Positions 6,319 through 60,938 of a stretch of 64,000 nucleotides of DNA are shown here, one piece after another (within the stretch, counting starts at the first letter, position 1; each line of letters begins with the position of its first letter). The stretch is taken from positions 215,326,001 through 215,390,000 of the forward strand of contig OZ024742.1 of assembly GCA_964016885.1 (NCBI GenBank), in the 5' to 3' direction. The notes beneath the pieces were generated by a model that saw nothing but the letters and a program-made list of their open reading frames with translations, made no database searches and was not told the DNA's origin. The stretch comes from Eledone cirrhosa. Lineage: Eukaryota. Both the position numbers and the translations under genes were made by a program.

Positions 6319-7080
6319 ATACAAGTTATACATTAATATATATGATAAACACAAAACGTGTTTGTATTGTAAGAGACAAAGTAGCTAGCAATGAAATAAA
6401 CTAATTAAAGTGAATACAATTTGTCTGTCTCGATATAAGTCAATAAAGACAAGCTTATATTGGCAAAAGCCGTGATTCCTGGACAAATTTGAATTTCAAA
6501 ATCCAAACCCTTCAAAAATTTTGCAGGTCTGACTACACGTGCGTCTAGCCAGCCAAACTAGCCATCCCGCAGTCCCGGTGCTAGAAATAACAGCCATTTA
6601 TACGGGATTAAAGATCAGCTCTACAGTTAATCCCGTATAAACGGCAGTTATTTCTAGCACGGGAATGCGGGACGGCTAGTTTGGCTGGCTACACGCACGT
6701 GTACAGTAGTCAGACCTGCAAAATTTTTGAAGGTGGAATGTACTAATTTTACTGGATTCCTGTTGATAAGCACAGAAGATTTGGATATTTCACTTTTTAT
6801 TTCAATTCCATTTCGATTCTCTTTATTTTTCAATTCATGTACCATCGTTGCGAGACATATTTGGGTTTCCAAGTTCAAATTCATCTACGGAGCGGGTTTG
6901 GATTTTGAAATTTAAATTTGTCCAGGAATCACGGCTTTTGCCAATATAAGCTTGTCTTTATTGACTTATATCGAGACAGACAAATTGTATTCACTTTAAT
7001 TAGTTTATTTCATTGCTAGCTACTTTGTCTGTTACAATACAAACACGTTTTGTGTTTATCATATATATTAATGTATAACT

Positions 7081-7085
<5 letters not shown>
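6319..7085. mobile_element. Long fold-back element, probably PLE-derived
   Basis: Near-identical inverted arms centred at about 6612-6626; extra segment 6734-6893 in the right arm translates on - as CLATMVHELKNKE..IEIKSEI, weakly like a PLE GIY-YIG C-terminus. Confidence 0.7.
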
Positions 7086-35882: not shown

Positions 35883-35950
35883 TATTTTATCTGATGAAAA
35901 AACAAATATTGCATGATGATTTTTGTTTTTGAAATGCGCATAATAAAATA
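35883..35950 (+). ncRNA. Type I hammerhead ribozyme
   Basis: tattttat-CTGATGA-aaaaacaaa...tttgttttt-GAAA-TGCGCA-TA-ataaaata; 8-bp stem I, palindromic stem III; decayed copies at 34767-34837(-), 48231-48301(-), 51143-51213(+). Confidence 0.88.
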
Positions 35951-44916: not shown

Positions 44917-44997
<81 letters not shown>

Positions 44998-45059
44998 GAA
45001 GTAATTCCGTCGGAAAAGTTCAGGAAAAAAGAGTGCTCTATGTAGGTAACAGAGCTTAA

Positions 45060-45323
45060 TAGTTATATAATAAACAACATAAGGCAATTATTTCATTTGC
45101 CAGTGGTTTCTTAAAAGCAAAACAAATTTGCTTTCAATCATCAGAATGAAAAAATCCTGGCGTATTTATTGACTTTGAATTTTAAAAATTTTAGATTTTA
45201 AAATCCAAAGTCAATAAATACGCCAGGATTTTTTCATTCTGATGATTGAAAGCAAATTTTTTTTGCTTTTAAGAAACCACTGGTAAATGAAATAATTGCC
45301 TTATGTTGTTTATTACATAACTA
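45060..45323. mobile_element. Near-perfect 264-bp palindrome of two outward-facing hammerhead-bearing ends
   Basis: Arms inverted about 45190; near or adjacent to TA tracts. Confidence 0.9.
45233..45291 (+). ncRNA. Type I hammerhead ribozyme, canonical
   Basis: ttcatt-CTGATGA-ttgaaagcaa...ttgcttttaa-GAAA-CC-act-GG-TA-aatgaa; predicted cleavage after 45285; the mirror 45092-45150(-) has a GCA triplet. Confidence 0.92.
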
Positions 45324-45328
45324 AATAA

Positions 45329-45360
<32 letters not shown>

Positions 45361-54978: not shown

Positions 54979-56076
54979 TTATATACAAACACACACACGC
55001 ACATATATATGTGTATATATATATATACGTGGAGAACTATATAAAGAAGAACAAACCCTTAAAACATGTTTATTTAAAATACCACCTACGTACGTTTCAT
55101 CCGACTGGTCTTCTCAAGGGCATAACAAATTAAAAAGCGTTCCTTACATGACCCCTAATGGGTTTCATAGATAAGTTCACATCACAGTCCATTCTTCGTA
55201 AAAAACATTTATTGATTTTGCAGTATGTCAAGGGAGATAACTCTAGCCGGTGTGAGAGCAATGTTCCCCAGGCTACTTGTATCCGTTATTACTGCTTTAC
55301 TATTGGTGATTCACGCAGGGTTAGGAATGCAATGTTAGTTTCCAGATGTTTGTTTGCTACGCCTGCCCTCCCGGGTCGAGTCATGCCGGGTCTAGGATGC
55401 ATGGTTAATTTGCGGATGTTTTTTGCCTCCGGGGTGTTTAGGTTTGGTGCAGGGTTTCCCGGTTTACGGTTCTCACGCCTTATTCTTATTCCATCTGGAG
55501 TAATAGATTTTTAAGCGGTGCGTACAGTTTATCGTCGTTTCTGCTCTACTGTTGATGAGCTCGTGGGGTGCCGTTATGATATGGTAAATATCCATGAGGC
55601 AAAGCTCGCATTTCCTCTTGAAATTGTACGGTGCTGCCCTGTCGACAATTTCCCAGTGTGTGGAGATTCTGATGTTTGATTCTTTTAATGCTGTAATGTA
55701 ATTCGCGAGCGAAGTGGAGTGTCTTAGTTTCTTGATTGCGAAAGAGTGGAGATGTGTTCGAAATCTATTTTTGAACGGGCCAGTGGTAGCCTCTATATTC
55801 GGCCTTAACGACTCCCTAGCAGCACCCAATTGTGCTGGCAACAGCCACTACAGACGCAACCAACATAACCGCGACACGACTGGGGAATATGCAGGTGACC
55901 CGTACGGATCACTCAACGACAACAGAAAGCGTTGCGGCATCCGGAATGATAATGGTACTACTCTGCAAACAGAGGCTTATAATGGTACCAATGACAGGTG
56001 TAGGGGCGTAGGTAACAACATAGATAGCAATAATAATAGCCTTACCTTGGGAACTAGAAGGGACTGCGACCAAAAT

Positions 56077-56505
56077 TGCAACTGCCGTAACAAGGGACGC
56101 TGCCCCCTTAGGGGAAACTGCGTGACTAATAGGGTTATTTATAGGCGCACCGTAACTAGCCATACTAGCGTTAAAAATTATATAGGGGATACCTCTGGCC
56201 CGTTCAAAAATAGATTTCAAACACATCTCCACTCTTTCGCAAACAAGAAACTAAGACACTCCACTTCGCTCGCGAATTACATCACAGCACTAAAAGACTC
56301 AAACATCAGCTTCTCCACACACTGAGAAATAGTCGGCAGGGCAGAACAGTGCAATTTCAAGAGGAAATGCGAGCTTTGCCTCATGGAGCTTTACCATATC
56401 ATAACGGCACACCACGAGTTCAACAACAGTAGAGCAGAAACGACCATAACCTGTACGCACCGCTTAAAAATCTATTACTCCAGATGGAATAAGAATAAGG
56501 CGTGA
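56077..56505 (+). pseudogene. Penelope GIY-YIG endonuclease domain (one in-frame stop at 56323-56325)
   Basis: CNCRNKGRCPLRGNC..VIY..YIGDTSGPFKNRFQTHLHSF..STSLANYI..CELCL..CTHR; the inverted copy 55473-55798 keeps the Trp codon. Confidence 0.92.
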
Positions 56506-56866
56506 AAACCGTAAACCAGGTCACCCTACAGCAAACCTAAACACCCCGGAGGACAGGCGCTGCAAAAAACATCCGGAAACTAACCATGCATACTAGACCC
56601 GGCAGGAATCGACCCCGGAGGGCAGGCGTAGCAAACAAACATCTGGAAACTAACTTTGCATCCCTAACCCTGCGTGAATCGACAATGGTAGAGTAGTAAT
56701 AACAGATAAAAGTAGACTGGGGAACATTGCTCTAACACCGGCTAGAGTTATCTCCTTTGACCTACTGTAAAATCAATAAATGTTTTTTACGAAGAATGGA
56801 CTGTGATGTGAACTTATCTATAAAACCCATTAGGGGTCATGTAAGGAACGTTTTTCAATTTGTTAT

Positions 56867-56906
56867 GCCCTTGAGAAGCCCAGTCGGGCGAAACGCACGT
56901 AGGTGC
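56867..56906 (+). ncRNA. Minimal hammerhead, U3-A8 core variant
   Basis: gccc-TTGAGAA-gccc-agtc-gggc-GAAA-CGCACG-TA-ggtgc; the mirror 55082-55121(-) has palindromic ACGTACGT. Confidence 0.72.
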
Positions 56907-57414
56907 TATTCTAAATAAACATGTTTTAACGGGTTGTTCTCTTTTATATATTTCTCCACGTGTATCCGCTCTACTGGTTTTCTCGCCCACTAGATATTAA
57001 CACTTCTAATATTTAACACTGCAAGCACAAGCATTGAGCACCCTTTGCATATGCTATTGGCTACATGTATGGCCTATCTCTTCTTCTCTGTCTCGATACT
57101 TAATCACTGTCTCTCTCTCTATATATATATATTTACATACATATATACATACATACAATATATATACACACACGCATACATAATAATAATACGTACATAC
57201 AAACAGATGCATTTATAAAATCGTAATAGAGAAACGATAAATTAATTAGACGAAAAATATTGAAATGCAAACATAATATTCCATGTACATATATGCATAG
57301 ATAAACTTATATAGAATATAGAAATAAGAAATACGAACAAAATATATGAACACACACATACACGCGTATATATACACACACATTTATACACACGCACTTA
57401 CACACACACACACA

Positions 57415-58011: not shown

Positions 58012-58048
<37 letters not shown>

Positions 58049-58054
<6 letters not shown>

Positions 58055-60121
58055 TAGCAGATTAAAGTATAAGCAAAGTATCGCTGCGTTCACGCTTAAC
58101 GGGATCTTCTGAAACTAAAAAAATCAATATGTGGAAGCAGAAGTAAATATTTCGAAAAACGTTGCAACCGAAGCAAGACAGAAACACGATACTTTGGTTC
58201 GTGGAGACGTTCCCTGGCAAAGAATGAAAAAAAACGAAGATAATATGTCATTATTTGGAGTGGTGAGAACAATTACCCGCAAAGACAAAACCACGTTTAT
58301 AGTATAAATGAAGTCGTAGACTAATATTCTATTAGGTGGTTCATGAAGACTTTCCCTGGCAATGAACGGAAAAACGAAGATAATACGTCATTATGTGGAC
58401 CGTTGAGAACACTTACACGCCAAGACAAAACCACGTTTATGGTATAAATGAAGTCGTAGACTAATATTCTGTTAGGTGGTTCGTGGAGACTTTCCCTGGT
58501 AATGAACGGAAAAACAAAGATGATACGTCATTATGTGGAGCGCTGAGAACAATTACACGCAAAGACAAAACCAAGTTTAAGGTATATCTGAAGTCGTAGA
58601 CTAAAATTCTATTTAGGAATCCGAATGATTCTCGGCTTCAGAGTTAAGAATAATGTAAATGAATTACAGAGGTTATTGAAATCAACAATAGGGTTAACCG
58701 CCAATATATTCAAGCAGCGTCTTTACATGCATATCCAGTCTTTTCTTAACCCTTTAAGAAGGAATATGACGTCACTTTCAGCTTATATCTGGAGTCTAAG
58801 AGACAACCACACCCAATATGGGTAACACTGGGAGATCCTAGATGGTATAATGGAAATAAAAGACCATGTGACGTCTGAGCCGCTGAAGCCCTGGAAATAC
58901 TCTACGCCAATGACCACTCCTTAAACAAAAAATCTGAGGCAATTTCGGCTTGTAAACATAAATTGCACAAAACTTTCCTGTATTACAGCCCAACATTATA
59001 CCCTAACGGATAGTACGAACTATACGCGGATAGTTTACGTCTTGATGTGGTAGCTAAGTATATGTTATGTTTATACCATTACTTATTTGTATAGGTAAGT
59101 ATATATTACCTGTATGTTTTGTGAAGGCATGTATACTTTCTCGTACGCATATTTGCTTGTATTTATTATAGGCGTATATATTACATGGGTTATGGTTTAG
59201 TGTGTACGTGAGTTTTGCGTTTGTGTGTGTATGCTGGTTTGCACGTATGTAGGGTGTGTGTATATGTGTACTTTGTGTTTTGGTTGACGTAGGTTTCGCG
59301 AACATATGTGTATTTACATGTAGGTATGTGTGTGCGCGCGTTATATACGTATGTATGTGTGTATATTTATTACGTTTTTATAATTATATGTATACACGCA
59401 CACACACACAAACATATGTTTTGTTTTTTTTTTATTAATGTGTTATGTGTATTTGGTGTATACGTACGTATGTGTGCGGGTACAGGCGATGCGTGGGTTT
59501 TCGTATGTATGCGCCTATTTGTGTGTACGTACCTGTATTTGCATACCCATGGTGGGTGTTTTCGCGTATGCATGTGTATTTACGTATATGGATGCGTGCA
59601 TGTATATATTTATTATTGTTGATTTCAATAACCTCTGTAATTTATTTACATTATTCTTCACTATGAAGCCGAGAATCATTCGGTTTCCTAAATAGAATTT
59701 TAGTCTACGACTTCATTGCCAGGGAACGTCTCCACGAACCACCTAATAGAATATTAGTCTACGACTTCATTTATACCATAAACGTGTTTTTTTCTTTGCG
59801 TGTAATTGTTCTCACCGGTCCAAATAATGACGTATTATCTTTGTTTTTGTCGTTCTTTGCCAGGGTACGTCTCCACGAACAAAAGTATCGTCTTCCTGTC
59901 TTCCTTCGGTTGCAACGTTTTTCGAAATATTTACTTCTGTGTTCATAGATTGATTTTTTTAGTTTCAGAAGATCCCGTTAAGGGTGAAAGCAGCGATTCT
60001 TTGCTTAAAATTTAATCTGTTATTTTAATGAATATTTGCTCTACGGTTCTTATGTATTTGATATATATTTATCCTTATCGAGCCCTCTTTGGATTTTAGT
60101 CTTCAAATTTATTAGTATTAC
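58049..60121 (+). mobile_element. PLE fold-back with GIY-YIG C-terminal remnant and minisatellite
   Basis: Arms about 58049-58640 / 59660-60028; IGLTANIFKQRLYMHIQSF..TSLSAYIWSLRD..HWEI..LNKKSEAISACKH at 58680-58960. Confidence 0.88.
58196..58612. repeat. About 141-bp tandem repeat, 3 units
   Basis: ggttcgtggagac units start at 58196, 58338 and 58478. Confidence 0.88.
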
Positions 60122-60575
60122 TATATATATATATATATATATAAATTACACAATAATAAAAGCTATGTTCAAATCGTTTTATTGCTGACAATCGTTTATT
60201 CCAAACTTTCGTTTTGGATCATCGGAGCACTAGCAACATTTGTACATATAATTAACCACCTATTCAACTGAACAATCATATAGATACATGGTTATTAATG
60301 TTGTCAACAACGGTTTCGTATTTACAGAGTGGAATGGATGCGACATAGATTACAAGAGAATTGTACAATAATTAAAATTAAAAGTTAATAATTACTGGTA
60401 ATAAGGTAGTAATGAATTACTGACCTTTCCTGTTAATAGTATATAGTGTATACATAACTATAAATAATATAATATATATATATATATATGGAAAGTTATA
60501 TTTAAATTGTTGTGTTACAACTAGTAAATATTTATAACTGATATAAAAGCACTCGACAAATATTTGGAGTATATT

Positions 60576-60934
60576 TACAATATTAAATAAATGGAAACTA
60601 TATTTATAAAACCATATTTATTTCATTATATATATTTCAGGGATAACATATTAACAATATGCTATGCCTTCCTCAGACAAAATACAATATAAACAGTTTT
60701 ATAGATACATAGATTCGACATACCGTAACAACATCTACTTGCATTTGAGAAATCAACCTTCTCAAATGCAAGTAGATGTTGTTACGGTATGTCGAATCTA
60801 TTTATCTATAAAACTGTTTATATTGTATTTTGTCTGAGGAAGGCATAGCATATTGTTAATATGTTATCCCTGAAATATATATAATGAAATAAATATGGTT
60901 TTATAAATATAGTTTCCATTTATTTAATATTGTA
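60576..60934. mobile_element. Near-perfect 359-bp palindrome with two hammerheads
   Basis: 7-nt spacer atcaacc at 60752-60758; the tail 60490-60600 also occurs inverted at about 19770-19890. Confidence 0.92.
60828..60889 (+). ncRNA. Type I hammerhead ribozyme
   Basis: ttttgt-CTGAGGA-agg-c-atagcatatt-gtt-aatatgttat-c-cct-GAAA-TATATA-TA-atgaaa; identical mirror at 60621-60682(-). Confidence 0.82.
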
Positions 60935-60938
60935 TATT

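Follow-up and report, generated by a model that had tools for sequence, protein, structure and literature searches.

The Palindromic Locus and Its Boundaries

The window analyzed here is a 64,000-nucleotide stretch of the Eledone cirrhosa genome (assembly GCA_964016885.1, contig OZ024742.1, positions 215,326,001 to 215,390,000, forward strand), and coordinates are those of the window. Positions 45060-45323 form a palindrome centered at 45191/45192, in which 125 of 132 positions are paired, interrupted by stem mismatches at 45067/45316, 45099/45284, 45123/45260 and 45178/45205 and by a short loop. A preliminary description of this DNA as a minimal 264-bp palindrome was right about the pairing but not about minimality or symmetry, as the left arm extends on the minus strand into a 64-nt family tail (45059-44996) and the element spans 44996-45323. 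Read on the minus strand, the order of the insertion is inverted arm, sense arm and tail, with a TA run on each side. Both borders are (TA)n, which masks any target-site duplication. The features are the following.

44942..44995, no strand: (TA)n target microsatellite of the left flank with a CT run before it (from the sequence).
44996..45059, minus strand: 64-nt tail terminating at end E2; a family sequence that follows the pLTR end and separates pLTR from ORF in full-length copies.
45060..45188, minus strand: left arm, the 3' part of the sense pLTR, 5'-truncated at the junction hot spot (arm pairing, family copies).
45091..45151, minus strand: hammerhead of the left arm, predicted to be inactive and carrying C at 16.1 (45099) (motif, folding, family sample).
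45189..45193, no strand: junction of the inversion, including a few non-template bases and located at the family hot spot (putative RNA 5' end).
45194..45323, plus strand: right arm, an inverted tail-less pLTR copy with fixed end E1 at 45323.
45232..45292, plus strand: type I hammerhead; core 45239-45245 and 45273-45276, stem II 45246-45272.
45324..45360, no strand: right flank, a short A/T stretch and then (TA)n.

The locus was previously regarded as little more than a ribozyme plus its antisense; it proves instead to be a truncated, tailed retroelement insertion whose true sense is the minus strand. The stretch 44996-45323 is almost certainly a stump of a Penelope-like element (PLE) of the Hydra clade. 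RNA editing was considered as a cause of the differences between the arms and is unsupported by the four changes, which are of mixed type.

Hammerhead Motifs and Their Predicted Folding

The right-arm hammerhead (plus strand, 45232-45292) contains CUGAUGA at 45239-45245 and GAAA at 45273-45276, a 7-bp stem I, an 11-bp stem II including one G-U pair and a self-complementary stem III at 45276-45284 made of an A-U pair plus CC/GG. Its triplet is GUA at 45283-45285, H17 is 45285 and cleavage is predicted after this position. The elements of a type I core (CUGANGA, GAAA, UH and three helices) are all found in this arm, while the left arm fails at position 16.1, where its mirror triplet GCA carries a C in place of the conserved U (G on the plus strand at 45099). 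This C occurs in 1 of the 187 family motifs sampled and is therefore read as decay. Earlier observations on the motif gave the same GUA and GCA triplets, with 6 bp for stem I, about 10 bp for stem II and CC/GG for stem III. The motif had also been called the best-formed hammerhead, which holds for the intact right-arm core, but only because the substitutions fall on the left arm.

The base of stem II (10.1-11.1) is U-A and not the G10.1-C11.1 pair that PMC4209133, in the part available, lists as a type I hammerhead criterion. A scan of the whole window against Rfam at the gathering threshold returned 0 families, and the isolated right-arm motif folds modestly better than shuffled sequences (z from -1.6 to -1.9); the identification as a hammerhead is therefore based on its core sequence and helices and not on a match to a model. 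When the right arm is folded alone the minimum free energy structure is the hammerhead, with a pair probability of 0.46 for stem III. In the fold of the 264-nt transcript all three hammerhead helices have a pair probability of 0.0 and imposing the hammerhead costs 73.9 kcal/mol; for the minus-strand transcript of the same length the cost is 71.8 kcal/mol. As the result is the same on both strands, the antisense arm comes first whichever strand is read. The earlier proposal that the antisense arm is made first and that the long hairpin competes with the ribozyme is thus borne out by the folding model, in which the hairpin is predicted to outcompete the ribozyme totally on either strand, leaving it silent and with no switch.

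The stem III duplex formed between two copies is worth -10.2 kcal/mol, and its self-complementarity suggests a ribozyme that would act as a dimer. Dimer-type motifs with self-complementary stem III were reported not to cleave as single motifs (PMC4209133, in the part available), and since the present motif is of this type an assay of the isolated monomer may mislead.

A Hydra-Clade Family of Penelope-Like Elements

The 3.0-Gb assembly contains 5,012 exact matches to a 25-nt piece of the hammerhead core and 0 to its reversed control. Elsewhere, copies of this arm stop at the base equivalent to 45323 (E1) or run on through the tail to E2 and then into (TA)n; a third recurrent end lies about 125 nt beyond E1. 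The flanks of nearly all family copies inspected are TA or CA/TA runs. In 11 of 29 loci examined, judged by eye, the tail runs on into an ORF (L043-L046, L048-L054, L060), and in L063 and L065 the order is pLTR, ORF, spacer, pLTR and tail. The hammerhead lies inside the family pLTR, with the start codon about 230 nt downstream of the cut site.

One locus, L082, holds an open 715-codon frame encoding RT and GIY-YIG domains. It displays RWK (as MRWKA) and DKT (as SDKTK) and, as read by eye, the cysteine motifs CxCX5C (CSCRKPDEC), CxxC (CSLC) and CxH (CPH), with no CCHH and no cysteine within the GIY-YIG core. These are the features ascribed to the Hydra clade in the accessible text of PMC8557442, namely RWK, DKT, a CxCX5C linker, CxxC and CxH around conserved E and N and no CCHH, together with a (TA)n target and a generally short length, under 3 kb. 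The distance from pLTR to tail in L063 is about 4.0 kb, spacer included, which exceeds that length, a loose descriptor and not a defining motif. The placement in the Hydra clade relies on motifs rather than on a tree. A Pfam search with four family frames gave matches below the threshold only, including a weak one to RVT_1 (E 0.009). Database homologs of the protein numbered 1,197, nearly all unnamed, at 38-55% identity, and the best homolog of L082 reached 57%. The stump belongs to a new Hydra-clade family, and its inverted-pLTR layout has already been published.

The closest published relative is the octopus element Hydra-1_Obim (Octopus bimaculoides; PMC8557442, as far as its entry is available). 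It shares the ORF with a C-terminal GIY-YIG domain and RWK, DKT, CxCX5C, CxxC and CxH without CCHH, the (TA)n target, a stem III of the form ACCA-N-TGGT (loop A there, C here), a lack of the G10.1-C11.1 pair according to the parse in the supplement and, by eye, clear similarity in the N-terminus and RT blocks. The many substitutions, judged by eye without a tool alignment, make the present family distinct. Hydra-1_Obim is also described as 2,507 bp long with 'no pLTR', whereas the family studied here has clear pLTRs and the 64-nt tail and, in full-length copies, a TG/TA-rich spacer of roughly 1 kb together with an older copy of the hammerhead inside the element, for a total of about 4 kb.

That internal copy is an older pLTR found after the ORF in full-length elements (L063:4080-4182), and its hammerhead has G at position 17, a base present in 13 of 187 sampled motifs. 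It is followed by the spacer of about 1 kb, and the arrangement looks like a captured flank of the sort described for Pen1_Av. Just upstream of the pLTR core, at L063:1280-1310, a polypyrimidine tract ending in CAG resembles a splice acceptor. Overlap with an intron is known for Penelope pLTRs.

The genome-wide protein search found many stop-free frames of 713-715 codons (85 of 86,014 candidates were scored), several of them in kilobase-scale head-to-head pairs, and these sequences suggest that the family is young and possibly active.

Fixed Ends and Paired Arms

The arrangement of copies was surveyed in the first 100 core matches listed, in chromosome order. Among them, 22 neighbor pairs lie within 10 kb, of which 20 diverge head-to-head, 1 converges and 1 is direct; about 1 pair is expected by chance. 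In all 20 diverging pairs, one of which duplicates another, E1 forms one outer end and E2 the other, with spacings from 91 bp to 7.8 kb. Five further E1/E2 pairs were found among 36 apparent solos (L174 gave no match in this end survey), so that the rule holds at 25/25 loci, and the remaining solos end singly at E1 or E2. The lone converging pair (L091) has two tailed ends and the lone direct pair is a 3.6-kb element. The one-tail rule and the cap-like G described below were not found in the literature searched, which covered few subscription papers.

The two arms of a locus resemble each other more than arms of different loci, with 1.8 of 105 columns differing within a locus vs 4.8 between loci in 32 selected palindromes, an arm-permutation signal that partly reflects subfamily structure. 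This comparison used 32 of 38 palindrome rows, omitting a divergent internal pair, a duplicate, locus repeats and arms that were too short. Six locus-private variants are shared by both arms and 32 are confined to a single arm, and in just 14 of the 32 loci is an arm most similar to its own partner.

A tandem array of six 183-bp units of tail plus 5' leader, without hammerhead, was observed at L055-L059 (G000:C2:169702665-169703645).

A Junction Hot Spot with an Extra G

Palindrome centers cluster at a short self-complementary T/A site, often with a few added or reiterated bases. By pattern match the junction falls at this hot spot in 308 loci and near the ribozyme cut in 21, the two patterns differing in stringency. 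The idea that junctions mark the ribozyme cut was rejected on these counts. Many of the 21 are centered on the palindrome of stem III, and at most about ten of them would fit a start at the cut, but these would fit microhomology as well.

The base just before the hot-spot G (template T) was scored in copies with a non-template base two positions before that G; 139 were found and the first 100 were scored by eye, giving G in 75, T in 19, A in 3 and C in 3. At control positions an extra G occurs in 4/89 and 1/11. When 30 loci were inspected, non-template upstream sequence from varied partners was present in 21/21 G-bearing copies, and several T cases proved to be read-through copies of a subfamily. 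The extra G is on both arms at several junctions, including L201/L202, with perfect centers that leave zero to two unpaired bases. In L200, L209 and L222 capped tail-less arms are joined to tail-only partners, and a tail-then-arm pattern was found in 31 loci, about 14 of which stop less than 10 nt from E1 (by eye; the pattern limits the range). The junction of the window copy is at the hot spot and has no extra G.

An untemplated 5' G has been read as reverse transcription of the cap in L1 and SVA (PMC4859970, in the part available). From the position of the extra G we infer a capped RNA start, probably at a fixed point that precedes the cut site by about 90 nt; a fixed start upstream of the cut would mean that the template RNA is uncut, and uncleaved RNA was the main substrate in vitro according to the text available of PMC11167929. 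No TATA box was seen at the usual distance from the putative RNA start.

Proposed Integration by Twin Priming

The most probable reading is that a Hydra-clade PLE inserted a 5'-truncated pLTR with head-to-head arms into (TA)n at 44996-45323, likely by twin priming, and its hammerheads are predicted to be silenced by the hairpin. In the proposed mechanism, the element endonuclease would nick both (TA)n strands and each 3' end would prime a cDNA on element RNA that is capped and uncleaved; one cDNA would begin at E1 and the other at E2, the two start sites that would bound the tail. Both cDNAs would run through the hammerhead towards the cap, their ends would be joined at the short self-complementary T/A site beside it, often with a few added bases, and second strands would then be filled in. 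Sister copies suggest that a single capped RNA likely served as template for the two halves independently. The proper setting of the ribozyme would be the sense tandem transcript of the parent element, where it would likely act as a dimer or with the assistance of protein; in the stump the hammerhead has no predicted function.

The strict E1/E2 pairing, the extra G on both arms and the capped arms with tail-only partners are fitted best by twin priming, and the tail-only partners support separate priming because neither arm could have copied the other there. Similarly, PAc was reported to reverse transcribe from two sites bounding the tail, with both target strands extended (PMC11167929, in the part available). 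Twin priming specifically is favored over other routes to the same insertion, though with reserve, as the mechanism is read from end products. On the other side, the window copy has no extra G, and E1 contains ATT, which resembles the endonuclease cut motif given in the same portion of PMC11167929; E1 may therefore mark a cut made in a folded-back copy and not a priming site. Deletions within the hairpin at a later time could account for the tail-only partners, and the shared private variants could stem from gene conversion.

The rival that survives best keeps the same Hydra PLE stump and derives the second arm by fold-back: a cDNA primed at E2 would extend to the 5' end of the RNA, snap back at the short T/A palindrome and copy itself, and the endonuclease would trim this copy at E1. 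Junctions on short self-complementary sites, private variants common to both arms and the ATT in E1 all agree with it, and in the portions available junction palindromes are read as self-priming in PMC3846280 and the tail is ascribed to endonuclease resolution in PMC8557442. Perfect centers with zero to two unpaired bases and G on both arms are nevertheless hard to obtain by intramolecular priming, and tail-only partners joined exactly at the capped end require an extra deletion each. Fold-back is accordingly held to be unlikely, if by some way the strongest competitor of twin priming.

Selection for a minimal ribozyme/anti-ribozyme unit, either to regulate its own cleavage or to supply the host with double-stranded RNA, is very improbable. 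The hairpin would indeed dominate any transcript and the right-arm core is intact, but the locus is one among hundreds to thousands of similar insertions that vary in their junctions and in length (<200 bp up to about 8 kb). In addition, the left arm shows decay, no ORF as large as a gene adjoins the locus and the gap of 74 kcal/mol leaves no switchable state.

Still more improbable is a fold-back artefact of the assembly or library. Assemblies are known to have difficulty with palindromes, and no contig or read spans the whole stretch in one contig run and three RAD-seq runs, in which family-wide depth was seen. Against this, the arms differ at four stem positions and terminate at different fixed ends, the junction is unique, all 25 loci follow the E1/E2 rule and fold-back artefacts would not place G at one fixed site. 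A non-LTR retrozyme, that is, a tandem hammerhead repeat propagated via RNA circles, has a comparably negligible chance: the type I dimer-type hammerhead is related to PLE pLTRs in the text available of 10.64898/2026.07.22.740005, but direct tandems with a hammerhead per unit would be expected instead of inverted copies (20/22 close pairs; 1/22 direct), copies are joined to a PLE ORF elsewhere and the sole tandem array, that of 183-bp period, has no hammerhead part.

Relation to Known Systems and Significance

For EN+ PLEs in general, the typical insertion is described as having a tail on one side and, at its 5' end, a 5'-truncated copy in inverted orientation (PMC8557442), junction palindromes are known, e.g., in Pen2a_Av (PMC3846280), and opposite-strand hammerhead pairs occur 100-700 bp apart (PMC4209133), in each case in the parts of these sources available. 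The head-to-head arms, the tail on one arm, the short junction palindrome and the hammerhead in each arm are all in line with these published ends. The tails of EN+ PLEs in the accessible text of PMC8557442 are of 30-40 bp and 'optional', while here they are of 64 nt and strictly one per pair (25/25). The cap-like extra G distinguishes the present junctions from the published ones as far as the available text describes them.

The family resembles PAc, the Anolis Poseidon element studied in vitro (PMC11167929, in the part available), in the two ends bounding the tail, the AT-rich target and the read-through of an uncut hammerhead. PAc belongs to a different clade and its ORF starts inside the hammerhead; such an ORF is absent in the family copies examined, where it begins about 230 nt after the cut. 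L1 twin priming, as cited in the part available of PMC4859970, is also similar in that both target strands prime on RNA, leading to inversion, and in the untemplated 5' G. Unlike L1, both cDNAs of this family usually cover the same pLTR, which yields a palindrome, and both start sites are fixed. To our knowledge, L1 inversions do not duplicate sequence.

The palindrome is a usual by-product of Penelope-like integration and not a switch; the locus itself is ordinary retroelement debris, and the interest lies in the family statistics. The origin of the inverted ends and tail of PLEs is stated as open in the available parts of PMC8557442 and PMC11167929. There are about even chances that the insertions of this family record the whole of Penelope integration in vivo, with a fixed capped start, two obligate start sites and cDNA joining at the cap. 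If so, that record would explain the head-to-head pLTRs and the one-sided tail, and the transposed RNA would not be ribozyme-cut. Intact ORF copies and hundreds of young junctions give sharp predictions on the RNA start, the two priming sites and the uncut template. If transcribed, hundreds of such hairpins could feed double-stranded RNA pathways.

Other Repeats in the Window

The window holds further repeats. A second palindrome of another family, at 60573-60937, has 179-nt arms at 99%, and both of its strands carry an intact type I hammerhead (60826-60891, plus; 60684-60619, minus) with TATATA as the stem III loop; a TA run borders it on the right, its left arm is longer, and it is likely another PLE stump. 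A solo hammerhead of a third family lies at 35883-35950, with stem III TGCGCA; about 130 nt separate it from a TA run downstream, and this third family is also found beside L016, L018 and L050. At 6319-7085 nested inverted repeats lie between TA runs, with 192-nt arms at 99% and an inner palindrome at 6509-6733, and a motif scan detected no hammerhead core in them. Finally, long inverted repeats of about 780 and 325 nt, at about 90%, are present at 55023-56965 and 58042-60035 and are possibly larger insertions of the same kind.
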